This document shows, one piece after another, positions 2,085 through 28,957 of a stretch of 32,675 nucleotides of DNA. The stretch lies in the sequence record NC_028896.1, one strand, 5' to 3'. Every line of letters starts with the position of its first letter. The stretch's first letter is position 1. The notes beneath the pieces were generated by a model, which was not told where the DNA came from, made no database searches, and saw only the letters and a list, made by a program, of their open reading frames with translations. This stretch comes from Escherichia phage pro147. A program made the translations under genes and the position numbers.

Positions 2085-4532
2085 TTAACCGTCATGCATC
2101 ATGCTGGCACGGGCGCGCGCACGTTTATCCCGCTCGTATTTTTCGAGCGCATCCTGTAACTGGCGGTCGAGCTGTGTCCCCGGCGCAGTACCACCCGTCA
2201 GGCTGATGTGATATTCGTTTTTACTCTGGTCCACATAAGAGCGGCCAGCCGGTGCCGTGACCGGCTGATAAGCCTGATAGCCTGCATAAGAGCTGGTCGC
2301 CGGAATATAACCACCGGTGCCATACGTGGCGGCATGAGTTCTGGCGGCGGTCTGGTCAAGTGTGTCTGACTCTTTGTTGATAACACCGAGTTTTTCCAGT
2401 ACCCAGTCAATACCGCTGCGCAGTTTGTTGAACGCATTAAGCGGCAGCATCAGCGCGTCAGCCAGTGCCTGCCCGAACATGACGCCCGTGTCACGGCAAC
2501 GGTTCAGGGTGTCCTGGGTGGCTTTAACCGGAGCAATCAGGTTTGTAAACCACTGCCACGCGGCCTGTAACTTTTCGCCCAGCCAGTCAAACATCGGTTT
2601 CAGTGGCGTGAACAGTTCCCCCACCGACGCAAAGGCCGCTTTCAGCCCTTCCACCACACCGCCAAAGAATGCGCTGACAGGCTCCCAGTATTTACGGATA
2701 AGCAACGCCCCGGCGACAATGGCAGCCACCACGGCCACAACCGGCCAGCTAATCGCCCCGATGGCCGTCATAACGGCACTACCAACCGTCGTGAAGATTG
2801 CCCCCATTGCGCCTGCTGCCGCGATGATGGCATTGATGCCGGTGATAACCGGCCAGGCTATGAGGCCAATGGCACCGATGACACCAGTCAGCGCCAGTGC
2901 ACCACCGACAATGATGCCGATGGTTGACGCCAGTGATTTGTTTTTCTGTATCCAGCCGTCGAGTTTTAACACATACTTTGTGGCCGTCTGCGTGAGATTA
3001 CGCAGTGCGCCTTCCTGTTGGTCAAACAGGTCAGTCCCCACCGCCTCATAAGCGGACTGAAACTCCTTAAAGTCACCGCCGAGGTTATCCTGCATGATAT
3101 TTACCAGCTCGGCGGTCTTCCCGTCTGAGGCTTTAAACGCAGCGGTCAGTTTGTCCAGCTTTCCGGTTGAGGCGGCAGTCATCAGCACGGCGGCGGCTGA
3201 GCTGGCCTCCTCCCCGAAAATAGTTTTCATGTATTCAGCCTGCTGGGCAGTACCGAGCCGGTTTTTCTCAAAACTGGCCTGCATTTCTTTCAGAATGGTA
3301 AATATTGGCCGGGTGTTTCCCTTGCTGTCTGAGGTTTTCACTCCAAGCTCTTTGAGTGCATCCCATGCTTTTCCCGTCGGTGCCTGCAGGCGGCTTAACA
3401 CGGCACGGCTTCCCGTCCCCGCCATTGAGCCTGTGATTTTTGCATCATGCAGCCCCCCGACCATTGCGGCGGTTTCTTCAATGCTGACACCGGCATTTTT
3501 TGCCACAGGTGCGGCATAGGTCAGCGCATCGCTCATGCCGTCAAAATCGGCGGCGGTTTTGTTCATCGTCATGGAGAGAACATCCCCGATATGAGCGACC
3601 TTATCGTTTGAAAGCTGAAAGGCGGATTTCATCCCCATCAGCAGGGCGGCGTTTTCTTCCATCGTGCGGCGGTTCGCCAGCGCCATATTCAGCGTGACCG
3701 GCGTTGCCGCCTGAATGGCATCAACATCCCCACCCGCTTTCGCGATGATTATCTGTGCACCGGCCGCATCATCCGCCGAGGCTGCGGTATTGTCACCGAG
3801 CTGGCGCGCCTGTTTGCGTAGTGCGGTCATTTCGGCGGAGTCTTTTGCCACTCCGAGCACGGCCTGCAATTCTGAGTTTTTCTGCGCAAACTCATAACCG
3901 GGCATCAGCAGCTTAACTCCGGCCATCGTTCCCGCCGCCGCAATCCCCACACCGGCAGCGCCCACCGAGGCCATATTTCCGGCCAGTTCCTTTCCGGCCT
4001 GATAACGCTGTTTGACTGCGTTAAGTTTTGCCTGTTGCGCACTGACACGCGCCAGCGCATCACGCTGACGGTTAAGCTGTGCGGTGGTTTCACTGATACG
4101 GTTTTTCAGTCCCTGCTCATCATGTGCAAGATTGCGGGTATTAATTCCCACAGCGGCCAGTTCCCGCTGCTGGCGTTTAACGGAATCCGTCAGGCGGTTA
4201 TATTTCGCCTGTAAGTCCTCCGCCGCACGCTTTGCGGATTCCAGCACTTTCGCCTGAGCACGGGTCGGACGTTCGGTGTTTTTAAACTGTGTGGCAAGGG
4301 CTTCGGCTTCCTGCCGAGCCTTTTCAAGTGCATGACCAGTCACGGCGAGCTGTGCACTGGTCTTGCGGAATCCCTCAATACGGGATGCGTGACCGTTCAG
4401 CTCGCGCAGTGATTTTTGTGTTTCCCGGATATCCCCCGACAGCGACTTGCTCGCTGTGCGGATGGATTTAAACGGGCGGGATGCCTGGTCAACAGCCCTG
4501 AGCAATACCTGTAATTTTACATTGTTACTCAT
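2085..4532 (-). CDS. T: Tail tape measure protein T, 815 aa
   Basis: 815-aa ORF with coiled-coil-like N-terminus and hydrophobic Ala/Gly-rich central segments typical of tape measure proteins; position between E/E' and U. Confidence 0.9.
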   Translation of the reverse strand: MSNNVKLQVLLRAVDQASRPFKSIRTASKSLSGDIRETQKSLRELNGHASRIEGFRKTSAQLAVTGHALEKARQEAEALATQFKNTERPTRAQAKVLESAKRAAEDLQAKYNRLTDSVKRQQRELAAVGINTRNLAHDEQGLKNRISETTAQLNRQRDALARVSAQQAKLNAVKQRYQAGKELAGNMASVGAAGVGIAAAGTMAGVKLLMPGYEFAQKNSELQAVLGVAKDSAEMTALRKQARQLGDNTAASADDAAGAQIIIAKAGGDVDAIQAATPVTLNMALANRRTMEENAALLMGMKSAFQLSNDKVAHIGDVLSMTMNKTAADFDGMSDALTYAAPVAKNAGVSIEETAAMVGGLHDAKITGSMAGTGSRAVLSRLQAPTGKAWDALKELGVKTSDSKGNTRPIFTILKEMQASFEKNRLGTAQQAEYMKTIFGEEASSAAAVLMTAASTGKLDKLTAAFKASDGKTAELVNIMQDNLGGDFKEFQSAYEAVGTDLFDQQEGALRNLTQTATKYVLKLDGWIQKNKSLASTIGIIVGGALALTGVIGAIGLIAWPVITGINAIIAAAGAMGAIFTTVGSAVMTAIGAISWPVVAVVAAIVAGALLIRKYWEPVSAFFGGVVEGLKAAFASVGELFTPLKPMFDWLGEKLQAAWQWFTNLIAPVKATQDTLNRCRDTGVMFGQALADALMLPLNAFNKLRSGIDWVLEKLGVINKESDTLDQTAARTHAATYGTGGYIPATSSYAGYQAYQPVTAPAGRSYVDQSKNEYHISLTGGTAPGTQLDRQLQDALEKYERDKRARARASMMHDG

Positions 4533-4952
4533 TCGTGTTTCCGCTTCGCCGGAGCGCCTTTTCGCGCCATGTGATGAGTTCGGTCAGGCTCATGGGATAC
4601 AGTTCTGATGGCGGCCAGTGAAATATCACTGCCACATCCGCCATCAGGTCATCGACCGAGAGATTTTTCGGGAACGTCACTGCACCGAGTTCGGCGACAA
4701 AAAACCGACCACCTTACCGGCCAGCGCCACAAGGTCAGGCAGTTCCAGCGCGGCGACTTCCTGCTCGGTCAGCATCGGTGCCGTCATGCGCGGCAGCACT
4801 TTAATCAGTGCATCGACTTCGGAGTTTGCGACCGCAGCCAGACTGACACCGCGCAGCGTCCCCGCACTGGGTTTCATCAGCGTGACCTGTTCGATAACCT
4901 GCTCACCACGCTTGACCGGATTGGTCAGGGTAATCACATTTTCTTTGTTCAT
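4525..4952 (-). CDS. E': Tail assembly chaperone E+E' fusion produced by -1 programmed ribosomal frameshift (about 142 aa)
   Basis: Manual translation of the -1 frame after the TTTTTTG slip site gives VAELGAVTFPKNLSVDDLMADVAVIFHWPPSELYPMSLTELITWREKALRRSGNTNE, then TAA at 4525-4527 overlapping the T start codon. Total 85+57 = 142 aa, the size recalled for P2 E+E'. Confidence 0.75.
4677..4952 (-). CDS. E: Tail assembly chaperone E, 91 aa
   Basis: 91-aa ORF immediately upstream of T; ends ...GFLSPNSVQ with the slippery heptamer T TTT TTG (minus-strand sense of 4698-4704) near its 3' end. Confidence 0.88.
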   Translation of the reverse strand: MNKENVITLTNPVKRGEQVIEQVTLMKPSAGTLRGVSLAAVANSEVDALIKVLPRMTAPMLTEQEVAALELPDLVALAGKVVGFLSPNSVQ

Positions 4953-5008
4953 GGTTTTCTCACTTCTTAATCAGGGTTAACCGGTCAGCCAGGCTGACCG
5001 GATGAAAA

Positions 5009-5527
5009 TCACAGGCCGATATTGCGGCGGTGTTGCTCCAGCCGGTCGACGCCGTTCACCTTCTCAATCATGTTGATGGTGTCGATTTCGACCAGCTCCT
5101 TACCGTCCATCGTCAGCCGGAAATAGGTGCAGACCACGGAGATTTTCGACTCGGTGTCTTCTCCCTGTTTACCCTCGCCGGTGTCGATTTCTTTCTGACG
5201 TCCACGCATGACCACCTCGACGGCCACCGTTTCGCCGGTATCGTCGCGCTGGTAAGAGCCTGCAAAACGAATCGGCACGGCATCCACACCGGTTGCGGCG
5301 TAAAGCTCCCAGATAACCGAATCCGGGAAGCCACCCAGCGACCACTCCATTGACAGCGCATCGTCATCAAGGCCGAGGTCTACCGGTGCGCTGCCGTTCA
5401 TCCCCGCACCGCGATAGTTTTCGAGCTTACGGGTCAGTTTTGGCAGCGTGACGGACTTTGCAACGCCCTGATAGCTGTAGCCGTTCAGAAAGACGTTCAT
5501 TAACTTGAGTTTGCGCGGCATTGCCAT
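5009..5527 (-). CDS. FII: Tail tube protein FII, 172 aa
   Basis: 172-aa ORF directly downstream of the sheath gene; length and position match P2 gpFII. Confidence 0.9.
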   Translation of the reverse strand: MAMPRKLKLMNVFLNGYSYQGVAKSVTLPKLTRKLENYRGAGMNGSAPVDLGLDDDALSMEWSLGGFPDSVIWELYAATGVDAVPIRFAGSYQRDDTGETVAVEVVMRGRQKEIDTGEGKQGEDTESKISVVCTYFRLTMDGKELVEIDTINMIEKVNGVDRLEQHRRNIGL

Positions 5528-5539
5528 CGGTCAGGCTCC

Positions 5540-6730
5540 TTAATTGCTTTTAACCGAAGTGACCAGATTTGCCAGGTATTTATCGGTAATACGCTGGCGC
5601 AGGGTCAGGTTTTCGAGAGGAGGCACCGGGGTATAGTCATAGTCGATATACAGTTTTCCGGCCTTGAGGGTTTCCGCATCGTTGGATTCTTCGCTGAACC
5701 AGCAGGTCGCATCCACGATATAGCCGTTTGTTTTCAGCTCACGGAATTTGGCATTGATGCCGTCAACGATGTCGCGAATCAGCGTTGCGGTGATGGGCTT
5801 GTCCACCGCCCACATATGCGCCTCAGCCATCGTGTCGGCCAGCACCTGCGCGGTGCGGGTGTAGTTTTCAAAGAGGAACAGCGGGTCATCAGAGCAGGTA
5901 CGGTTACCCCAGAATCGGAAACCGTCGCGGCGAATCAGCGTAGTGACGCCTGACTCGTTAAGCAGGTCAGCATCGGTGCCGGACTCCTGCAAATCCCAGA
6001 ATACAGATGCGCTGATGCCGGTAACACCGTTTACCCCGACGTTGGACAGCGTTTTATGCCAGCCCTGCTCCTGGTCGATTTTAGCGCGCAGACCCAGCGC
6101 ACGGGCGGTGGCATACGCGGTGGCGGTGGTACTGTTGACCGTATCCCATGCGAGGAAATCCGGCCAGATGACCATCAGCTCACGCTGGCTGAAATTCTGG
6201 CGGTAGGCTTTCACCTCGGAAATGGTTTTACAGCCCCATGCGCTGATATACCCGAAAGCGCGCAACTTCTGACACACTGATGCCAGTGCAACTGCCACCT
6301 CTTTGGTGTCCAGTCCCGGTACGCCGAGAATACGCGGTTTAACACCGGTTACCGACTCCGCCGCCAGCAGGGCTTTCAGTCCGGTGTACTGACCGTTTTC
6401 GTCGGTGGTGCCGATGATATTGGAAACGGTCTGCGCGAGTTTCGTTTCCTCGTCGTCGCCGGTGCCGTCTTCCACACGCACAACAACGGTGACCGGTTTT
6501 GACTGGTCGGCGATGGCCTGCAACGCTGCCGCCAGCGTGCCTTTTTTACCGGCCTTTGCAATTGCGCTCTGCACATTGGTAATCAGCACCGGTTTATTGA
6601 GGGGGAAGATTTCCGCATCCGCATCGCTGGCCGTGCAGACCAAGCCGACAATGGCAGTGGATACGGTGGAAATGACGCGGGTGCCGTCGTTAATCTCCAG
6701 CACCTGCACGCCGTGATGATAGTCACTCAT
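5540..6730 (-). CDS. FI: Contractile tail sheath protein FI, 396 aa
   Basis: Translation from MSDYHHGVQVLEI... matches P2 gpFI as recalled. The internal ATG at 6728-6730 is preceded by GGAG; the track ORF extends to 6751 with 7 extra residues. Confidence 0.9.
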   Translation of the reverse strand: MSDYHHGVQVLEINDGTRVISTVSTAIVGLVCTASDADAEIFPLNKPVLITNVQSAIAKAGKKGTLAAALQAIADQSKPVTVVVRVEDGTGDDEETKLAQTVSNIIGTTDENGQYTGLKALLAAESVTGVKPRILGVPGLDTKEVAVALASVCQKLRAFGYISAWGCKTISEVKAYRQNFSQRELMVIWPDFLAWDTVNSTTATAYATARALGLRAKIDQEQGWHKTLSNVGVNGVTGISASVFWDLQESGTDADLLNESGVTTLIRRDGFRFWGNRTCSDDPLFLFENYTRTAQVLADTMAEAHMWAVDKPITATLIRDIVDGINAKFRELKTNGYIVDATCWFSEESNDAETLKAGKLYIDYDYTPVPPLENLTLRQRITDKYLANLVTSVKSN

Positions 6731-6834
6731 CCGTTTAACTCCGTGGTTCATGGGTGCAACTATTTTCTGTTGTGCAGAGCATGAGACGCTATTTGACCTG
6801 GCTGGTCAGTGGATGAAACAACAGATAAAGAAAA

Positions 6835-6853
6835 GGCGGGCAATCCGCCCGCC
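6835..6853. terminator. GC-rich hairpin between the FI start and the cargo gene; likely terminator/insulator
   Basis: 7-bp stem ggcgggc (6835-6841) / gcccgcc (6847-6853), loop aatcc; A-rich run to the left (T-run on the minus strand after the stem). Confidence 0.5.
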
Positions 6854-6989
6854 TGTCCTGATTTGAACTTACTCATTTTCCGACTGACAATTTACATAGC
6901 CAAAACACTATCATTTCCCTGACGTTAAGTTGTATCTTTGATAGGATTAAAAAATGTATAGATAGCTTATACTACTGAGGGAACAAAAA

Positions 6990-7799
6990 ATGACGCAAAT
7001 TAGTGAACGATGGAAGCACAACGGCATTACTAAAGGTTATTGCAATATTTGTGGAAAATATGACCTCCTCACAAAAGATCATGTTCCTCCAAAGTGTGCC
7101 ATAACCTTAGGTCCTGTTCTTCAGAAAACAGTTAGCGAATTTTTTGGTGTTCAGGAACCAGTTAAACCATTAAATGCTAAAAACGGCTCTTATTTCAAAA
7201 CCATTTGCAGCCACTGTAACAATAAGGTGTTAGGTGGACTCGACGTTGCAATTGAAAATGTAGCAAAGTCCTTTAAAGAACAGTTGAGTCAATATATGAA
7301 TGGTATGAGTGTATTTCCATTCATTAGAATACCTTTTGATAGCATATCTTTCACTAAGGCTATGATTGGACACGTGCTATCGGCAACTTCAGTTGAAGAT
7401 TGTAAAAAAGAACCCGTAGATAGCCCCTTCTATACACCTTTAAAAGATTATGTTTTGGGTAAGAATCCAAGTTTTGAGGAGACTCATGATATTTACTACT
7501 GGTTTTACCCACACAGAATGCACATATCAGCTCAAAGTGTAGCATTTATGAACGAAGGACATGTAGCATTTATTTGTGCTTTACATTTTTTTCCTATCGG
7601 TTTTATTATCACAATTAAAAATGAAGGAATATACCCTGCACACTCAACAAAATTAGAGCTTAAAGATAAATTCCTTACATTTAACATGACATCTGTAAAT
7701 TATGAGTATACGACATTTCCATTTGTAAATCTTAAGGGAAACCAAATGTATGCTATAAGCAACGGCCATACATGTGTGAGTTATCCAATAATTAAGTGA
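6990..7799 (+). CDS. Hypothetical 269-aa protein with N-terminal HNH-nuclease-like motif, in the P2 Z/fun cargo position; candidate anti-phage / superinfection-exclusion protein
   Basis: AT-rich ORF on the strand opposite all flanking late genes; ATG at 6990 preceded by GAGGGA. Motif string CNICGK...KDHVPPK...N...CSHCNN resembles the CxxC / DH / N / CxxC signature of HNH endonucleases. The C-terminal ~180 aa were not recognised. Confidence 0.6.
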   Translation: MTQISERWKHNGITKGYCNICGKYDLLTKDHVPPKCAITLGPVLQKTVSEFFGVQEPVKPLNAKNGSYFKTICSHCNNKVLGGLDVAIENVAKSFKEQLSQYMNGMSVFPFIRIPFDSISFTKAMIGHVLSATSVEDCKKEPVDSPFYTPLKDYVLGKNPSFEETHDIYYWFYPHRMHISAQSVAFMNEGHVAFICALHFFPIGFIITIKNEGIYPAHSTKLELKDKFLTFNMTSVNYEYTTFPFVNLKGNQMYAISNGHTCVSYPIIK

Positions 7800-21142: not shown

Positions 21143-22161
21143 TGAGTAAGAAAAAAGGGAAAACACCGCAGCCAGCGGTGAAAACAATGACTGCCAGCGC
21201 CCCGAAAATGGAGGCATTCACCTTTGGTGAGCCGGTGCCGGTACTCGACCGCCGTGATATTCTGGATTACGTCGAGTGCATCAGTAACGGCAGATGGTAT
21301 GAGCCACCGGTCAGCTTTACCGGTCTGGCAAAAAGCCTGCGTGCTGCCGTGCATCACAGCTCACCGATTTACGTTAAACGCAATATTCTGGCTTCAACGT
21401 TTATCCCGCACCCGTGGCTGTCCCAGCAGGATTTCAGCCGCTTTGTGCTGGATTTTCTGGTGTTCGGTAATGCGTTTCTGGAAAAGCGTTACAGCACCAC
21501 CGGTAAGGTCATCAGACTGGAAACCTCACCGGCAAAATATACCCGCCGTGGCGTGGAGGAGGATGTTTACTGGTGGGTGCCGTCCTTCAACGAGCCGACA
21601 GCCTTCGCGCCCGGCTCCGTGTTTCACCTGCTGGAGCCGGATATCAATCAGGAGCTGTACGGCCTGCCGGAATATCTCAGCGCCCTTAACTCTGCCTGGC
21701 TGAATGAGTCGGCCACGCTGTTCCGCCGCAAGTATTACGAAAACGGCGCTCATGCCGGATACATCATGTATGTCACCGATGCCGTGCAGGATCGCAACGA
21801 TATCGAAATGCTTCGCGAAAACATGGTTAAGTCGAAAGGCCGCAACAACTTTAAAAACCTGTTTCTCTATGCCCCACAGGGGAAAGCCGACGGCATTAAA
21901 ATTATCCCCCTCAGTGAAGTGGCGACGAAGGACGATTTTTTTAATATCAAAAAAGTCAGCGCCGCAGATCTCCTGGACGCACACCGCATCCCCTTTCAGT
22001 TGATGGGCGGTAAGCCGGAGAATGTCGGGTCACTAGGAGATATTGAAAAAGTGGCAAAGGTCTTTGTCCGCAATGAACTCATTCCATTACAGGAGAGAAT
22101 AAAGTCAATAAATGAATGGTTAGATATGGAAGTAATAAAATTCCTTGATTATAACTTATAA
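21142..22161 (+). CDS. Q: Portal protein Q, 339 aa (3' end AT-rich and apparently remodelled)
   Basis: 339-aa ORF overlapping the P stop (TGATG); position matches P2 gpQ. The last ~25 codons (22081-22161) are abruptly AT-rich, continuous with the downstream cargo island. Confidence 0.88.
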   Translation: MSKKKGKTPQPAVKTMTASAPKMEAFTFGEPVPVLDRRDILDYVECISNGRWYEPPVSFTGLAKSLRAAVHHSSPIYVKRNILASTFIPHPWLSQQDFSRFVLDFLVFGNAFLEKRYSTTGKVIRLETSPAKYTRRGVEEDVYWWVPSFNEPTAFAPGSVFHLLEPDINQELYGLPEYLSALNSAWLNESATLFRRKYYENGAHAGYIMYVTDAVQDRNDIEMLRENMVKSKGRNNFKNLFLYAPQGKADGIKIIPLSEVATKDDFFNIKKVSAADLLDAHRIPFQLMGGKPENVGSLGDIEKVAKVFVRNELIPLQERIKSINEWLDMEVIKFLDYNL

Positions 22162-22173
22162 GTAAATATATAA

Positions 22174-22200
22174 AGTTGGCGGAATGCAATCCCGCCAACT
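22174..22200. terminator. Hairpin between convergent Q and the retron-operon effector gene
   Basis: Perfect 9-bp stem agttggcgg (22174-22182) / ccgccaact (22192-22200) with 9-nt loop, filling the 42-bp gap between two convergent stop codons. Confidence 0.6.
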
Positions 22201-22203
22201 TAA

Positions 22204-22911
22204 CTATATATACTTCCTTTTTACTCTACTTAATTCTATCACTGATGAGGAGTGACAAAATGACAAATTAATAGTATCGATATAATCCAAAATTTGACTC
22301 TCAACCTCAATAAAAATATTTTTGGGCCCATTACTAATCGATATACCGATTTCATCCAAAACAGCCATCATTTTTCTCTGATGAGTTTTATATTTATAGT
22401 CTTTATTTTCCTCTGTAATATGTGCATTGGCTTCCTCAATAACACATTTGATTCTAGATATTATTTCTAGATAATCTCTCGAAACAGATATATCACCGCC
22501 TTGCGCTTCAGGGAACATAACCCTATACCATCTAAAAAAATTAACTTTCTCTGGATAGATGCTACTTCTTTTAGTTAACTCAGCACTTGCAAATTCTCTA
22601 AACATCGTCAGATGACTAGTGTAATTACTATTATTATTATTTTTAACTCCAGCGTTATATGTCATCAAAGCAATCATAACACCAAAAACGGTAACAAAAG
22701 TTGTTATAAGCCATCCAAACGCCTGAAAATACATTACTATACCAGATGTTTTTTCCGCAAAAAATTTTAAGCACTGGCTATCGAAGCATATATCACGCTC
22801 ATATAGCTTTTCATTCTGAATAGTTTCAAAAAGAGAAATTAGCGAAAAAATCAAAAAAAGAGCTGACGACACACCGACAATATATTTGAGAAGTCTAATA
22901 TTTGCATTCAT
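22204..22911 (-). CDS. Putative retron effector: 235-aa protein with two N-terminal transmembrane helices
   Basis: AT-rich ORF overlapping the 3' end of the upstream reverse-transcriptase gene by 4 nt. Hydrophobic segments YIVGVSSALFLIFSLISLF and VMYFQAFGWLITTFVTVFGVMIALMTY, followed by a ~140-aa soluble C-terminal domain. Confidence 0.7.
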   Translation of the reverse strand: MNANIRLLKYIVGVSSALFLIFSLISLFETIQNEKLYERDICFDSQCLKFFAEKTSGIVMYFQAFGWLITTFVTVFGVMIALMTYNAGVKNNNNSNYTSHLTMFREFASAELTKRSSIYPEKVNFFRWYRVMFPEAQGGDISVSRDYLEIISRIKCVIEEANAHITEENKDYKYKTHQRKMMAVLDEIGISISNGPKNIFIEVESQILDYIDTINLSFCHSSSVIELSRVKRKYI

Positions 22912-24182
22912 AATGGTTTTAAAGATGCCAATCTAGATTTAAAACACTCCAGTTTTTCTTTAAATGATTCAGAGCGAGTAAGAATAATCATCTTATATCT
23001 CGTCAAATCATATTTTCTTTTATACCAATGTTTATTTTGATTACCTTTCGAATACGACAACTCTAAACTTTTTATAGCTGCATCAATCACAGCAACATCT
23101 CTTTTAGATGGCATCGGTTTTATTGCCTGCAACTGTTTCTTGAATGATTCATATTTTTCATGCGCAACACGGCCAAGCTTATTCACTCTCCCCATACATC
23201 TATTGAATTCTTTTCTGTATGCAACACTTGTTTTTGTGTTATTTTTTGCCGCCAGTAATTTCAAATTATGTATAGATGCCCTGATTCTTTTGACTTCATC
23301 GGATGGTAGTCGAGGTGAGTCATAGTCAACTCTTAAACCATGTACTTTTATAGGTTCAGATGAACAGTGAAATATTTTAGTTTTGCGCTTATTTATCGGC
23401 AAGTCATGCTCAGAAAGCATCCTCTCTATATGGCTTTGCATTTGAGAAAAATCATAATTACTTATTTTAGATGACACGGTAATATCATCTACCAAACGCG
23501 TATAAACAAGTCCTTTCCTCTGCGCACGTCTTACCACATCCCCTTCAACAGCGAATAAACACAAAGTTGCTATATAGCTTGATGTTAAGGCCCCCTGTAC
23601 GACAAAATCATCCTTAGTACATATATCCACCAAGTATTCAAGAGCCTCATCCTTAATATGCAATATCTCCTCAAACACGCTCCTAACCAGATCTCTATGG
23701 ATATTATCGAAAAAATTACTTATATCCACCTTGAGAACTGTTTTTGCTCCACAATGAGCCTTTGCACATGAAACATAGTCACGTTTGACATTAGAATTTA
23801 AAACATCATTTTTACTGGGAACTGAACCAAACAAAAATGAAGGAAAAACAACCAATTCCTTAAAGATACGTTTATTAATTCTACTCTGTAATAATCTCAT
23901 TTTAGGATGCAGGGAGTAGACAATCCGTTTGCTTCCGTCAATTTTGGGAATTTCTTTTAGAGTATATTTCTCATCTAATGGTAATTCTGCAATAGCTTTA
24001 AGCTCTTCAACAGAAATCGATAAAGCCTTTGACAACTTTTCAAGTGTTGTGATAGGAGCATTGGATTTGCTGTATGGTTTAAATTTATCCATAAACATAC
24101 CATTCAAATTCAAAGTTACGTACGGTCTTCCCATACTCAAGGGTGGAACAGCAGAGATGCTTACATCAACAATTGTCAGCAA
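22908..24182 (-). CDS. Retron-type reverse transcriptase (start uncertain: TTG 24182, ATG 24134 or ATG 24098)
   Basis: Translation shows the RT motifs ...CAKAHCGAKTVLKVDISNFFDNI..., ...QGALTSSYIATLCL..., ...YTRLVDDITV... (YxDD box) and a VHGL motif resembling the retron VTG signature. AT-rich; the TTG at 24180-24182 is preceded by AGAGG. Confidence 0.8.
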   Translation of the reverse strand: MLTIVDVSISAVPPLSMGRPYVTLNLNGMFMDKFKPYSKSNAPITTLEKLSKALSISVEELKAIAELPLDEKYTLKEIPKIDGSKRIVYSLHPKMRLLQSRINKRIFKELVVFPSFLFGSVPSKNDVLNSNVKRDYVSCAKAHCGAKTVLKVDISNFFDNIHRDLVRSVFEEILHIKDEALEYLVDICTKDDFVVQGALTSSYIATLCLFAVEGDVVRRAQRKGLVYTRLVDDITVSSKISNYDFSQMQSHIERMLSEHDLPINKRKTKIFHCSSEPIKVHGLRVDYDSPRLPSDEVKRIRASIHNLKLLAAKNNTKTSVAYRKEFNRCMGRVNKLGRVAHEKYESFKKQLQAIKPMPSKRDVAVIDAAIKSLELSYSKGNQNKHWYKRKYDLTRYKMIILTRSESFKEKLECFKSRLASLKPL

Positions 24183-24423
24183 CAGCCTCTGCTATCTTTC
24201 GACCGTACGTAATGTCGTCGGCTACGGCACCATCGTAGTTGACGACGGTGGGGCCTCGCTGATAGGTCCATAGTGGACGCTTTTTTGTAAAAGCAAAAAC
24301 TGACAATTTAATGTTGTTGACTGCCGCATACCAAGCGAATCGCTGGTGCGCTAAGAATAATGCAACAAAAAAATAAGAATTTCAACCGGGTAACTGCAAG
24401 CCAGCGACATCGTTTAGCGCGCA
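24183..24423 (-). ncRNA. Candidate retron non-coding RNA (msr/msd) in the structured leader upstream of the RT gene
   Basis: GC-rich non-coding stretch between cos and the RT with a nested hairpin gtcgtc-gg-ctacg-gcaccat-cgtag-tt-gacgac (24214-24246) and a 12-nt inverted repeat ttacgtacggtc (24116-24127) / gaccgtacgtaa (24201-24212). Exact msr/msd boundaries could not be determined. Confidence 0.3.
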
Positions 24424-24442
24424 GTGCTTTCCCCGCCTCGCC
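24424..24442 (-). other. cos: Phage cos site: 19-nt cohesive-end sequence GGCGAGGCGGGGAAAGCAC (minus-strand sense)
   Basis: Plus strand 24424-24442 reads gtgctttccccgcctcgcc, the reverse complement of the P2 cohesive end as recalled; followed by ...ctgcgcgct as at the P2 left end. Adjacent GC hairpin ccgccc (24442-24447) / gggcgg (24456-24461) plus tttt. Confidence 0.75.
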
Positions 24443-24648
24443 CGCCCGCTTCATGGGGCGGTTTTAATGCAGTAGCATGACCACTCAACTAGCGCGCCAG
24501 TCCTGATGTCGCCAGGCAGTTATTGTTCTCTGACTTGCGTGCGCTTCGATGCAGAGTAATGCACTTCCTGAATTGCTCGCATTCGCATCGTTATCATGAT
24601 AGAAAACAGGTAGTTATTTGTGCGCAACTTAAGAAGAAATCACTAATT

Positions 24649-26193
24649 ATGAAAAAGATTTATGAATTAACTACTGGTAGAGCGCTTAAGTATTTTCTGC
24701 AGCATGATTCATACACTACTCTGGAGCTACCCAGTTATGTCGATTTTTCTTCCTTGCTTGAAGAAATCAACTCCGCGATAGATGAAGGTAAAATCAACTT
24801 CCAACCTGACTCCAAGTCATTGATGGGGAAGAATATAAATTACGAGGTTTTAGTCAGCAAAGATGGCTTATATAGCTGGCGACGAATAACACTAATTAAT
24901 CCTCTGTACTACGTGTATTTTTGTAAACTTATTACATCCCCTTCCAACTGGAAGGCTATAAAGAATAAATTTAGAGAGTTTGAGTCTAATGATCTTTTTT
25001 TATGCTCAAGTACCCCAGTGAGCAAAAAGAACACCTCAAACGTAGCTGCATCTGTTTTAAACTGGTGGGAAGATTTTGAACAAAAAAGTCTTTCATTGGC
25101 TCTTGAGTATGAGTTCATGTTCAGCACAGATATTTCAAACTTCTACCCTTCTATTTACACTCATAGCTTTGAATGGGTATTCATCTCAAAAGAAGAGGCC
25201 AAAAAGAAAGAAAATAACAATAACCCAGGACGATTGATTGACACTCATATCCAGATGATGATGAGTAATCAGACAAACGGAATACCATTGGGTAGTACGT
25301 TGATGGATACATTTGCCGAATTAATTTTAGGCGAAATTGATTTACAGCTAAGAAAAAAAACTGAAGAGCAAAAAATAACGGATTACAAAGTAGTTCGCTA
25401 CAGAGATGATTATCGAATATTTTCAAGCAGTAAAGATGATTTGGACAAAATCTCAAAGTGTTTGGTTGAGGTCTTAGGTGAGTTTGGGCTTGATTTAAAC
25501 TCAAGAAAAACAGAACTACATGACGACATCATTCTTCACTCTCTTAAATCAGCAAAAAAAGAATATATTATAGAAAGGTCGTTCAACTCCCTACAGAAAA
25601 TGTTGTATGCAATATATTTATTTTCTTTAAAACATCAAAACTCCAAAATTACAGTTAGATATTTAAATGATTTCTTGCGAAAATTATTTAGGAAGAAAAA
25701 GATCACAAATAGTGGGCATCAACTAGATGCAATGCTTGGAATTATTTCAAGCATCATGGCTAAAAACCCAACCACCTACCCAGTGGGAATGGCTATTTTC
25801 GCAAAACTCTTGACCTTCCTTTATGACGACGATGAACTCAAATTTGGCAAGTTACAACAACTTCATTGTAAACTAGGTAAACAACCAAATACTGAAATGT
25901 TAGATATTTGGTTTCAACGAGTTCAAGGGAAGATACACACACAATGGGAAGGCGATTACAAAACAGCCCTATGTCAACGCATAAATGATGAACTCAAGGG
26001 AAAAAAAACATTTACCATTGATGGCCTGTGGGATGTAGAGTGGATTCCGGGCTCAGCCAAAAGTAAAAACAAACAGAAAATACTATCAATTTTGAAAAAA
26101 ACAAAAATTGTGGATTTAGATGCATTCGAAGAAATGGATAATGATATTACACCAGAAGAAGTGAACTTATTCGACAAGGAACACAGCGCTTAA
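24649..26193 (+). CDS. Abi-P2-like (Abi/UG-class) reverse transcriptase, single-gene anti-phage system, 514 aa (alternative start ATG 24559)
   Basis: AT-rich ORF in the tin/old cargo position. RT motifs ...FSTDISNFYPSIYTH..., ...NGIPLGSTLMDTFAEL..., ...VVRYRDDYRIFS..., followed by a long C-terminal extension with no recognisable effector domain. No adjacent partner gene. Confidence 0.75.
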   Translation: MKKIYELTTGRALKYFLQHDSYTTLELPSYVDFSSLLEEINSAIDEGKINFQPDSKSLMGKNINYEVLVSKDGLYSWRRITLINPLYYVYFCKLITSPSNWKAIKNKFREFESNDLFLCSSTPVSKKNTSNVAASVLNWWEDFEQKSLSLALEYEFMFSTDISNFYPSIYTHSFEWVFISKEEAKKKENNNNPGRLIDTHIQMMMSNQTNGIPLGSTLMDTFAELILGEIDLQLRKKTEEQKITDYKVVRYRDDYRIFSSSKDDLDKISKCLVEVLGEFGLDLNSRKTELHDDIILHSLKSAKKEYIIERSFNSLQKMLYAIYLFSLKHQNSKITVRYLNDFLRKLFRKKKITNSGHQLDAMLGIISSIMAKNPTTYPVGMAIFAKLLTFLYDDDELKFGKLQQLHCKLGKQPNTEMLDIWFQRVQGKIHTQWEGDYKTALCQRINDELKGKKTFTIDGLWDVEWIPGSAKSKNKQKILSILKKTKIVDLDAFEEMDNDITPEEVNLFDKEHSA

Positions 26194-26293
26194 CGAAACA
26201 ATGTTATTAACTCAACATGACTTCGTTAAGCATTAAAGCGAACAGTCATATGAAATTTCGACATCCCTAACGCCTCGCAAGCTCGTTGTTCAC

Positions 26294-26338
26294 CCCCGCC
26301 AGCACTGAAAGCGAGTTTCAGCGTCGACGGGGTTTTCT
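26294..26338 (+). terminator. Possible intrinsic terminator downstream of the Abi-P2-like RT gene
   Basis: Composite hairpin: outer ccccg (26294-26298) / cgggg (26328-26332), inner ctgaaa (26305-26310) / tttcag (26316-26321), followed by ttttct. Confidence 0.35.
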
Positions 26339-26358
26339 ATGGTCAACGTGGTGACAGA

Positions 26359-26619
26359 TTATGGGCACGCGTGAAGGTAGAAATATGGACGGTTGGGATT
26401 ATTGATTTCTCCCATACGGCTGCAGTTATCACTGACGATCTCAGTCCCTCCGACCAACTCGTAGAGGGTCAGATTCTCTTTGACCATAATTTGTAAACAA
26501 TAGCCATCAGCCGCAGACTCTTGCACGAGTACAATGGCGGAACCGGACGCATAGCTAGTAATGTATGCATTAGTCATAATGACATGCTTCCAAAGCAAGA
26601 TCGCCACGCAGTTCCGCAT
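26359..26619 (-). CDS. Hypothetical 86-aa protein downstream of A (position of P2 orf91)
   Basis: ORF in the track only; sits where P2 carries orf91 but no sequence similarity could be verified from memory. Confidence 0.3.
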   Translation of the reverse strand: MRNCVAILLWKHVIMTNAYITSYASGSAIVLVQESAADGYCLQIMVKENLTLYELVGGTEIVSDNCSRMGEINNPNRPYFYLHACP

Positions 26620-26680
26620 GATCCATCAGTTGCTGATACCAACCATCAAATGGAAGCAAAATCAACCATTTCAATCATTT

Positions 26681-28957
26681 TTATATGTTTGTTGAGAATC
26701 CCGGCCACTCATCAGCGACCGGATACGTGAATTTTTCCCCGTCATAATTTACGGTCGCGCCACGCGCCAGCGCCTCAAGCTCCCATCGCTGTGGCCTGAT
26801 ACCGTTCTGAGCAAGGTCAACGCGGATACGGGTAATTTGCATTCGTTCCGACCGGGTCAGTCTGGCCGATGGCGCTATTTCATGCGGTTTTAACGGGCTT
26901 CCGTTTCTTTGCTGACGGTTTGGTCTTCTCAGACCGTGTTTTAATGCACCTCTGAGCGCCCTCACGACCTCCTGGTCATTCCATTCGATAACACCGTCAT
27001 CTACCAGATTAAGCACTGCTGCGGCGTGCTCAGAAGGTGTGGGAGCCGGTAACGAAGTATCACCACCGGTGAGCTTTCCACAGTTATTGACAGGACTCCG
27101 AGGCGCGGCGATGCCGCTTTTTAAAGTCAAAGGCTCAACGACCAGCACTTTCGGAACAATGCGCCAGTCCGTCGTTCTGGTGATATGAATATGACGCGCG
27201 CCGAGATGCGGCGCGTAAATGCCGACCACTCTCTCGACTTCTTCCTCGTACTCGTTAACTTCATCCGACGGACTACGGGCGACCCTGACAGTCTGACAAT
27301 CGCGCGGGACATTTGCCCCACCCTGCGCGCTGATATACAGCGCAAAATCGCCACTGTCTGCGGCAGCGCGTGCAGCCTCGACGCGTTCGTCAAACTCATC
27401 AGCAATGCTGACGCCGCGAGGTAATTTGCGTAGTTCACGGTAAGCCCCCATTGTCGGCAGGCCAACCGTTTTAAATTGCGGAATGCGCCACGTTGACGCC
27501 CATGCGGTAACAGCCGCGGCAGTGTCTTTCAGCGGCCTGCCGGTATCGTTATCGAGCTGACCATCCAGTGCATAGCCGTCGATGTTTTTTGAAATGTATT
27601 TCGCGATATACCCCGCAGCACCGCCCCGGTTAAGGTGTTTTGCCTGAAAACGGTTTCGCGCGGCTCCTCTTTCGTCGCCATCCTCTTTGAGCGCATAGCG
27701 ACGCATGATTTCGATAATCTGGTTACGCTGGCGCGGATTACAAAAAAGCATCATATGCCAGTGCGGCGTTCCGTCGTGGTGTGGCTCGACGACACGCAAA
27801 CCGTAGACCTGTAAATCATTATCCTTGAATGCCGTGCGCATCAGGCTCCAGATACGGCAGAGATAACGCTGCGCATCCTTTGGATTAAATGCCTCATCGT
27901 TCCAGCCGTGATTTAGCTGGACGGTTTTACTTTCGCCTTTTCTGACCTGACGTGTCGGGTGATACTTTGACGGCGCGGTCAGCGTGATAAACATCCCCAC
28001 ATCACCCTCTGCTGCGGCGTAACGCTCAATACCGGCAATGGTGTTCATCAGCTCCATCCGGCGAATTTCAGGATTAGAAATACTGCCCATCACCTTACTG
28101 ATAAGGTCGATGCGCTCGCCGGTTTCCCTGTTTTCAAGGTCACACGATTTAAGAAATTCCAGATTTGCCTGGCGGCGCGCACGCACATCACGAATGGCAT
28201 GTTTACTGGCATAAGGAGAACGGTCTTTATTGACCTCCCCGACAGCTATCAGTAACGCCTCATGCCAGCGCATACGTTGGCCTTTAAGCTGATGAGTCCA
28301 CCACTCATCGTTAAACAGGCGGGCAATGGCAGAATATGCCTGCCTCGTGGTCATCTGTCCTTTACGGTATTTTTTCCAGTAGAGCGGGGAAATATTGAAA
28401 GCACGTGCAGCGCCAGCAACATGACCATAGAGGTGAGCCTGCGCCTCATCCGTAAACAGCGATTCTTTTTCGCCATGTGCATCAACCCAGGCATCGCAGA
28501 GTTCCTCATACATCATGAAAAGCTGCGATGAGATACGGGCAGCAAACTTTTTCAGCTCCTTGTCATTCATTCCCGGCAGGCGCGCATAGTGGTCACGCTC
28601 TGCCAGAAACAGCAACGACGCGTCGGTGTTCATTTCATGGCGCTGATTCACACGCTCAATGCGCGGCCATAAACGACGCTGAAAAGTGGATGTGAGGAAA
28701 TAAAACCCGTGCACCGGGCTTTTATTGCGCCGGATGTAGTCATAACGTGAAGTAAACAGCGAGCGCAAAAAGTAAGGCAGGCGGTTAATCGTGGATAAAA
28801 CACCTTGCACCTGACGCATCTCGTCACGTGTAAGGGGTCTTTCGCGCCCGACAGCCTCGCGTGGCGCGTTCCATGCATAAGCACCGGTAAACGTCTTACC
28901 GGTGCCTGCGGCAAATGCTGACGGAGGGACAAAACGCCCGGAGGCTTTAACGGCCAT
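26681..28957 (-). CDS. A: Replication initiation protein A (rolling-circle nickase), about 758 aa from ATG 28957
   Basis: Translation from MAVKASGRFVPPSAFAAGTGK... matches the recalled P2 gpA N-terminus. The track ORF starts 14 codons upstream at a TTG (28999). The last few codons lie at the boundary with the cargo island. Confidence 0.9.
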   Translation of the reverse strand: MAVKASGRFVPPSAFAAGTGKTFTGAYAWNAPREAVGRERPLTRDEMRQVQGVLSTINRLPYFLRSLFTSRYDYIRRNKSPVHGFYFLTSTFQRRLWPRIERVNQRHEMNTDASLLFLAERDHYARLPGMNDKELKKFAARISSQLFMMYEELCDAWVDAHGEKESLFTDEAQAHLYGHVAGAARAFNISPLYWKKYRKGQMTTRQAYSAIARLFNDEWWTHQLKGQRMRWHEALLIAVGEVNKDRSPYASKHAIRDVRARRQANLEFLKSCDLENRETGERIDLISKVMGSISNPEIRRMELMNTIAGIERYAAAEGDVGMFITLTAPSKYHPTRQVRKGESKTVQLNHGWNDEAFNPKDAQRYLCRIWSLMRTAFKDNDLQVYGLRVVEPHHDGTPHWHMMLFCNPRQRNQIIEIMRRYALKEDGDERGAARNRFQAKHLNRGGAAGYIAKYISKNIDGYALDGQLDNDTGRPLKDTAAAVTAWASTWRIPQFKTVGLPTMGAYRELRKLPRGVSIADEFDERVEAARAAADSGDFALYISAQGGANVPRDCQTVRVARSPSDEVNEYEEEVERVVGIYAPHLGARHIHITRTTDWRIVPKVLVVEPLTLKSGIAAPRSPVNNCGKLTGGDTSLPAPTPSEHAAAVLNLVDDGVIEWNDQEVVRALRGALKHGLRRPNRQQRNGSPLKPHEIAPSARLTRSERMQITRIRVDLAQNGIRPQRWELEALARGATVNYDGEKFTYPVADEWPGFSTNI

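Follow-up and report, generated by a model that had tools for sequence, protein, structure and literature searches.

The window analysed in this work is a stretch of 32,675 nucleotides from Escherichia phage pro147 (NC_028896.1), which corresponds to a P2-like prophage: over the first 22 kb, identity to phage P2 and its relatives is approximately 96-97% and extends along 93-95% of the length. The P2 cohesive-end sequence (cos), GGCGAGGCGGGGAAAGCAC as read on the minus strand, gives a single exact match at 24424-24442; the DNA around it (24416-24500) resembles the cos regions of numerous P2-like phages, among them one with the annotation cosR. Replication gene A, coding for the replication endonuclease, occupies 26681-28957 on the minus strand, according to the open reading frame list and to the PGAP annotation of an identical locus. 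These two features form the left and right edges of a cargo segment that contains, on the plus strand, the coding sequence of a reverse transcriptase-like protein (24649-26193, 514 aa plus stop), with a GC content of 35.1% compared to 54.4% in positions 1-21900 of the window. The description of this gene in the initial annotation, as an AT-rich plus-strand gene lying between cos and A, was therefore correct. The additional notion that the phage carries a single gene there holds for the cos-to-A segment only, since a three-part retron is found in the portal-to-cos segment and an 86-aa unannotated reading frame precedes A.

The cos-proximal locus between gpQ and gpA of P2 has been described as a reservoir of defence systems, AbiP2 being among those listed for P2 (PMC9122126, PMC13586616). 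The P2 genes tin and old occupy the same slot beside cos and share the same broad role, as prophage-encoded exclusion genes of the gpQ-gpA hotspot, but their proteins and mechanisms are unrelated to those of Abi-P2, and no tin- or old-like sequence was detected between 24443 and 26680 by any of the searches run.

On the portal side of cos, all the elements of the second module lie on the minus strand. A membrane protein is encoded at 22204-22911 (PADLOC 2TM_IV, E 4e-85, 283 bits; NCBIfam Ec48 effector, 226.7 bits for a cut-off of 65), next to a reverse transcriptase at 22908-24092 (PADLOC RT_IV, E 1e-176, 585 bits) and, upstream of the latter, a structured RNA at approximately 24166-24320, delimited by inverted repeats at 24166-24179 and 24300-24320 and containing a hairpin at 24214-24246 (folding z-score of -3.6). 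Together these elements make up a complete retron of type IV (Ec48 family). The non-coding RNA, on the strand opposite to the Abi-P2 gene, goes with the RT_IV gene, which is a separate one. When compared with a relative devoid of the retron, positions 22095-24415 proved to be a clean 2.3-kb replacement of 244 bp, restricted to the portal side of cos. It includes approximately the final 22 codons of the portal gene, and the two sequences become homologous again 8 nt before cos.

The frame of the reverse transcriptase gene under study is uninterrupted on the plus strand from 24523 to 26193, the longest possible reading frame in a program-made list (556 aa from a TTG). Three starts were considered: this TTG at 24523, an ATG at 24559 (544 aa, as in a GenBank record from 2006) and an ATG at 24649 (514 aa, as in RefSeq). 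The third one is the RefSeq/PGAP call (WP_001605760.1), and the alignment with the PADLOC AbiP2 profile begins at residue 1 of the 514-aa form. Moreover, DNA similarity to the allele of phage P2-EC30 starts exactly at 24649 (base 250 of the query) and the protein alignment with EC30 runs at 75% identity from Met-Lys-Lys on, while the N-terminal extensions of 30-31 aa annotated for EC58 and EC30 are unrelated to each other. In the crystal structure 7R08, in addition, the first 31 residues of the EC30 construct are invisible (PMC9508834). On the basis of these comparisons, the supported start is the ATG at 24649, and the in-frame upstream extension (24523-24648, plus strand) is most likely an untranslated leader. 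The 544-aa and 556-aa starts were rejected, as similarity to EC30 begins at 24649 and the extensions upstream are unrelated. The initially proposed size of about 514 aa matches the form beginning at 24649, which is backed by RefSeq/PGAP, the profile and the EC30 alignment. The range of 24523-26193 given with it was right as an open frame, but its first 42 codons do not belong to the protein.

A purine stretch is found approximately 10-18 nt 5' of the ATG in both alleles (AAGAAGAAA here and AAGAG in EC30, as read from the sequences), and it may be regarded as a weak candidate for a ribosome-binding site. A consensus scan upstream of the gene gave no convincing promoter, the total number of sites being 13 compared to 15.6 expected from shuffled sequences; expression of the gene is, therefore, assumed.

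The identity of the encoded protein was deduced from profile searches. PADLOC AbiP2 matched residues 1-512 along positions 4-487 of a 489-position profile (E 5e-160, 531.5 bits). The next PADLOC matches were all to other UG/Abi or DRT reverse transcriptases and clearly lower: Drt6 (159.7 bits), UG14 (149.7), Drt4 (145.8), Drt3b (133.3) and AbiK (105.3). Pfam RVT_1 recognized only the reverse transcriptase palm (aa 142-291, E 1.4e-10), phrog_12132 matched the protein from residue 1 to 514 of 514, and the best match among structures was 7R08, the crystal structure of the P2-EC30 Abi-P2 protein (E 7e-258). Values of this order for RVT_1, AbiP2 and 7R08 exclude a chance match. In contrast, all the matches in NCBIfam stayed far under their cut-offs, including Drt4 (122 bits for a cut-off of 450) and Drt3b (117-133 bits between PADLOC and NCBIfam, for a cut-off of 350). 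Affiliation to maturases finds no support, since the group II intron model TIGR04416 reached 42.2 bits, over the palm only, for a cut-off of 300 in NCBIfam; in PDB, the maturase 6ME0 aligned over 80 residues with E 9.8e-05. The sole retron match of the protein, to the St85 reverse transcriptase (34.8 bits for a cut-off of 235), likewise places it outside the retron enzymes, and no model for diversity-generating retroelement (DGR) reverse transcriptases appeared among its NCBIfam matches. It had been anticipated that better matches to retron, group II intron or DGR enzymes would speak against an Abi/UG assignment; with AbiP2 on top along the full length, retrons at 35 bits and group II introns at 42, the outcome was the opposite. 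RefSeq names the protein generically "RNA-directed DNA polymerase" because NCBIfam lacks an Abi-P2 model. The sequence evidence thus supports that the gene encodes Abi-P2, a member of class 1 of the UG/Abi reverse transcriptases, in agreement with the class initially proposed for it.

The three reverse transcriptase motifs pointed out at the outset are all present: DISNFYPSI (aa 161-169), NGIPLGSTLMD (aa 210-220) and RYRDDYRIF (aa 250-258). The first block is identical in EC30, and its first residue, Asp161 (codon 25129-25131), is presumably the catalytic aspartate, by analogy with reverse transcriptases in general. The active-site box YRDD corresponds to aa 251-254 (25399-25410), with Tyr251 equivalent to Tyr282 of EC30 and Arg at the variable position. 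A conserved Arg within Y/FxDD was described as peculiar to the Abi-P2 group (Simon and Zimmerly 2008; PMC2602772), and this hallmark is, therefore, found in the window protein. In the EC30 enzyme, the tyrosine that primes DNA synthesis is Tyr61, located in a loop of the fingers between helices alpha2 and alpha3; its change to Phe eliminates DNA polymerization, while the Y46F version remains active (PMC9508834). Tyr61 aligns with Tyr30 of the window protein (codon 24736-24738) in a conserved LELP-x-Y context (LELPSYVDF here, LELPAYINF in EC30), and Tyr46 aligns with Tyr15.

Two domains can be delineated by homology to 7R08. Residues 1 to approximately 300 (24649-25548) would form the reverse transcriptase-like fingers and palm, with an approximate boundary; they include the RVT_1 match and are 79% identical to EC30. 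The remainder (aa 301-514, 25549-26190) aligns without large gaps, at 69% identity, with the helical domain of 7R08 (an alpha-solenoid, or alphaRep), which takes the place of the thumb (PMC9508834), and a thumbless architecture ending in an all-helical solenoid is accordingly predicted for the window protein. No Pfam domain was found in the C-terminal 220 or so residues. The length of this extension, initially given as about 250 aa, is about 215-220 aa.

The gene is almost the same as one already deposited. Over positions 24457-26700, the DNA is 99.5% identical to that of the TO region of phage P2-EC58 (GenBank AM157368.1), and the protein differs from ORF544 of this phage at three of 544 positions (K/R, G/E and S/N). 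In P2-EC58 the gene likewise lies between cos and gene A and is followed by the same ORF85; the 2006 record sets its start 30 codons further upstream (24559 of the window), a choice not supported by the comparison with EC30. As the record ends at cos, it is silent on the presence of a retron across it. Among P2-like prophages, orf570 of P2-EC30 and orf544 of P2-EC58 have both been named as Abi-P2 genes (PMC9508834), and the description of the EC58 gene dates from 2006 (Odegrip 2006, through PMC9508834, PMC8632793 and PMC2602772). Direct experiments on the EC58-type allele were not found in the literature searched.

The P2-EC30 protein is a more distant relative. ORF570 (CAJ43154.1) is identical at 385 of 514 positions (75%), with one single-residue gap, and the domain order, YRDD box, sequence context of the priming tyrosine and location in a P2-like prophage are the same; in contrast, the two flanks have nothing in common, either 5' of the ATG or from approximately 36 nt after the stop onwards. 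Direct data on T5 exclusion, structure and biochemistry come from the EC30 protein. In cells, EC30 ORF570 lowered the plating of T5 by more than 10^7, and the T5 resistance was abolished by deletion of the YRDD region, as Odegrip 2006 is summarised in PMC8632793. The work by Figiel et al. 2022 (PMC9508834) provided the 7R08 structure, in which two lobes are distinguished, the reverse transcriptase-like fingers and palm and a C-terminal solenoid of 11 helices replacing the thumb, separated by a cleft that acts as a channel for the nascent single-stranded DNA. The protein is a trimer, which can stack as a dimer of trimers (hexamer), and it makes DNA from dNTPs alone, without template or nucleic-acid primer. 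The view that the C-terminal domain and the priming activity remained uncharacterised is, therefore, outdated for the family, since work published in 2022 on a 75%-identical protein covers the structure, the trimer, the priming tyrosine and the template-independent synthesis, and it applies only to this particular allele.

Relative to EC30, the gene shows a dN of 0.17 with saturation at synonymous sites, and for the C-terminal domain dN is 0.22 and dS 2.46 (dN/dS approximately 0.09). As dN is far under dS, both domains are under purifying selection. The protein retains the sequence features of EC30 (Y30, Y15, D161, YRDD and Y251) under this kind of selection. Of the 5426 complete E. coli genomes, 64 carry the allele at a DNA identity of at least 99%, the identical form being WP_001605760.1. 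Translated matches at 99% or more were also found in 15 plasmid records, among which are plasmids of Klebsiella and Citrobacter that harbour P2-like prophages.

All these observations can be integrated, with a high degree of confidence, by assuming that the gene encodes a stand-alone Abi-P2 anti-phage polymerase, acquired horizontally as cargo of the defence hotspot next to cos in this prophage. Like its EC30 orthologue, the window protein would carry out an untemplated synthesis of single-stranded DNA primed by a tyrosine, and the lysogen would gain an abortive-infection type of protection against T5-like phages, which would extend to the resident prophage. Hints about how such a synthesis might lead to defence come from other class 1 members, as AbiK of Lactococcus lactis (PDB 7R07) and DRT4/UG15 combine, as does Abi-P2, a reverse transcriptase-like lobe and a helical lobe, lack a thumb and assemble as trimers or hexamers, and are likewise single-gene abortive-infection systems with tyrosine-primed, template-independent synthesis of single-stranded DNA. 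They differ in their priming tyrosine, which is Tyr44 in AbiK and Tyr125, in the palm, in DRT4 (PMC12783706), in their helical domains, without mutual sequence homology among class 1 members (PMC9508834), and in being only distantly similar in sequence to the window protein (105 bits for AbiK and 146 for Drt4, compared to 531.5 for AbiP2).

For DRT4 it was reported that, as long as the cell is not infected, ExoI shortens the product and that, upon infection, ORF55 of T5 protects the 3' end, so that single-stranded DNA builds up and the cell dies (PMC12783706). As Abi-P2 from EC30 also excludes T5, a similar route is considered the most likely one for Abi-P2, by analogy. In the uninfected cell, a host exonuclease such as ExoI might keep the protein-linked, random single-stranded DNA short, and during infection a phage single-stranded DNA-binding protein, such as ORF55 of T5, could shield its 3' end. 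The accumulated DNA might then be toxic, or it might titrate replication and recombination proteins of the phage, causing the infection to abort. The ExoI/ORF55 step is borrowed from DRT4, whose profile match to the window protein is far weaker (about 146 bits compared to 531.5 for AbiP2 in PADLOC). For AbiK, AbiA and Abi-P2 themselves, the link from DNA synthesis to defence has been described as unresolved (PMC12783706, PMC11077055), and a review from 2021 left open the need for other elements of the locus in Abi-P2 defence (PMC8632793).

A variation of this scheme, to which a small but appreciable probability is given, is that the EC58-type allele acts on other phages or responds to another trigger than EC30, or that its pairing with the retron across cos has been selected. 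The phage range of the window allele could differ from that of EC30 because a quarter of the positions have diverged, mostly in aa 1-50 (64% identity) and aa 451-500 (54%). The former of these stretches surrounds the priming loop and the latter lies in the helical domain. As for the pairing, Ec48 is known as a retron that responds to the inhibition of RecBCD. According to the account of Millman et al. 2020 given in PMC9122126, an antiviral retron senses the phage inhibition of RecBCD. Both modules could then monitor the interference of phages with host nucleases, provided that ExoI restrains the Abi-P2 products as in the DRT4 model.

A stronger version of the relationship would be that Abi-P2 and a divergent Ec48-family retron build a single system with two reverse transcriptases, as in DRT3 (Drt3a, Drt3b and a non-coding RNA), in which Abi-P2 would need the RNA or the membrane effector of the retron. 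The two reverse transcriptase genes are indeed only some 470 bp apart, with a structured non-coding RNA between them, the Abi-P2 protein has a secondary match to Drt3b (133 bits), and the pair is found together in 42 complete E. coli genomes. However, about 22 of the 64 genomes carrying the allele lack the full pair, and at the three loci inspected (strains WS3294A and ECE313, and an IncC plasmid of Klebsiella with a P2-like prophage) no gene other than Abi-P2 lies between portal and A. Since retron-less loci carry Abi-P2 alone, the two modules are independent pieces of cargo, one in each half of the hotspot. In addition, the retron block was exchanged cleanly and on the portal side only, and the retron is complete by itself (RT_IV at 585 bits, 2TM_IV at 283 bits and the Ec48 effector model above its cut-off). 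Furthermore, cos separates the two genes, which places them at opposite ends of the packaged linear genome, and EC30 Abi-P2 polymerizes DNA in vitro without RNA (PMC9508834). Nor does the locus conform to DRT3, as Drt3b stays under its cut-off of 350 and the neighbouring enzyme, on the other side of cos, is a type IV retron reverse transcriptase and not Drt3a. The two-enzyme system, largely refuted by the retron-less loci, was considered highly improbable and rejected. That Abi-P2 functions by itself is also in keeping with the lack of any Rfam match and of conservation with EC30 in its flanks.

It was deemed equally improbable that the protein is a templated defence enzyme that copies a nearby non-coding RNA, as in DRT2 or Drt3b, instead of a template-independent polymerase. 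This would fit its canonical palm (RVT_1) and the reverse transcriptase activity measured for EC30 by Odegrip 2006, as cited in PMC8632793. However, no Rfam family was detected in 21500-27000 at E values up to 1, neither as a partner RNA of Abi-P2 nor as the RNA of the retron; the EC30 and EC58 alleles show no conservation in the region upstream, and that downstream (26194-26680) is a mosaic not common to EC30. The EC30 structure has no thumb and its channel fits a single-stranded product, which is made without template (PMC9508834). Lastly, the idea of an inactive remnant or a misannotated frame devoid of current function, to which only the generic RefSeq name and the failure of the consensus scan to reveal a promoter upstream of the gene would lend some weight, has almost no chance of being right, given the intact frame of 514 codons with all catalytic and priming residues, a dN far under dS, the conservation of the allele at 99% or more across 64 genomes and plasmids of several species, and the fact that the generic name merely reflects the missing NCBIfam model.

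The locus carries little weight as a discovery. Published work already covers the gene and the family to which it belongs, the genomic slot and, for a close orthologue, both enzymology and structure, and surveys of the P2 hotspot already list AbiP2. The practical gains are the correction of the start to 24649 and the mapping of Y30, D161 and YRDD (251-254) onto this allele, together with the independence of Abi-P2 from the adjoining retron and the realization that the generic name in RefSeq hides the family.

A minor observation concerns the DNA that separates the gene from A. ORF85 (26359-26619, minus strand), known from the P2-EC58 record and of doubtful reality, would encode an 86-aa hypothetical protein; it is annotated in AM157368.1 but not called by PGAP, and it lies outside the block of similarity to EC30, which stops near 26229. 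Searches of ORF85 and of the spacer (26194-26680) in Pfam and PADLOC yielded no match, and the assignment of Abi-P2 is independent of this frame, which is context only. ORF85 matches phrog_13272, of unknown function, and the whole region shows similarity only piecemeal to the right ends of other P2-like phages.

The interval between the portal gene and cos (window 22095-24415) holds a complete retron of the Ec48 family (type IV), all of whose components lie on the minus strand: a gene for a two-transmembrane (2TM) effector (22204-22911), the RT gene (22908-24092) and, upstream of the latter, a structured ncRNA with flanking inverted repeats (about 24166-24320). No Rfam hit to this ncRNA was obtained in a search of window 21500-27000 with E-values up to 1. 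Compared with retron-less P2-like prophages, the retron block stands in place of 244 bp that include the final ~22 codons of the portal gene, so that the C-terminus of the portal protein has been changed to a different, AT-rich one. Immediately adjoining the cos sequence, the plus strand carries a GC-rich hairpin with a T run behind it (CCGCCCGCTTCATGGGGCGG TTTTAA; 24442-24461), which is conserved in the retron-less relatives. This hairpin could be a terminator or, alternatively, a component of the terminase-binding flank of cos.

On the other side of Abi-P2, the spacer that precedes the replication gene A (26194-26680) resembles in patches the right-end sequences of PSP3, SEN1 and P2-like phages of Yersinia. 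It contains, on the minus strand (26359-26619), the putative 86-residue ORF85 of the P2-EC58 record, which falls in phrog_13272 (unknown function) and where PGAP calls no gene.

The tail genes enclose another AT-rich island, with a GC content of about 34% (6990-7799, plus strand), which probably occupies the Z/fun position. It carries one ORF of 269 residues, which has no match in Pfam, PADLOC or NCBIfam and none at the DNA level to the P2 fun(Z) gene; its sole matches are phrog_21495, whose function is unknown, and a single phage record (CP025907.1; 94.6%, with 75% of the ORF covered). This ORF is a candidate for an uncharacterised cargo or defence gene.

The same Abi-P2 allele, with 99% amino acid identity to that of the window, is borne by P2-like prophages on large plasmids, for instance one from K. 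pneumoniae (NZ_CP025141.1, locus L005), typed as conjugative (IncC), and one from Citrobacter freundii (NZ_CP114566.1), indicating that this defence gene travels beyond E. coli chromosomes into plasmids of other Enterobacteriaceae.

Many complete E. coli chromosomes from RefSeq (hits H23, H24, H27 and H29, among others) have the locus at positions 2258-7058 of the record, meaning that these records start exactly at the start codon of the P2 gene A. It seems to be an artefact, in which assembly rotation software mistook the replication gene of the prophage for the gene that marks the replicon start. In E. coli ECN24 (NZ_CM176598.1, H21), one copy of the locus is split by an IS30-like ISApl1 insertion, and the match covers 5.9 kb, versus 4.8 kb without the insertion.
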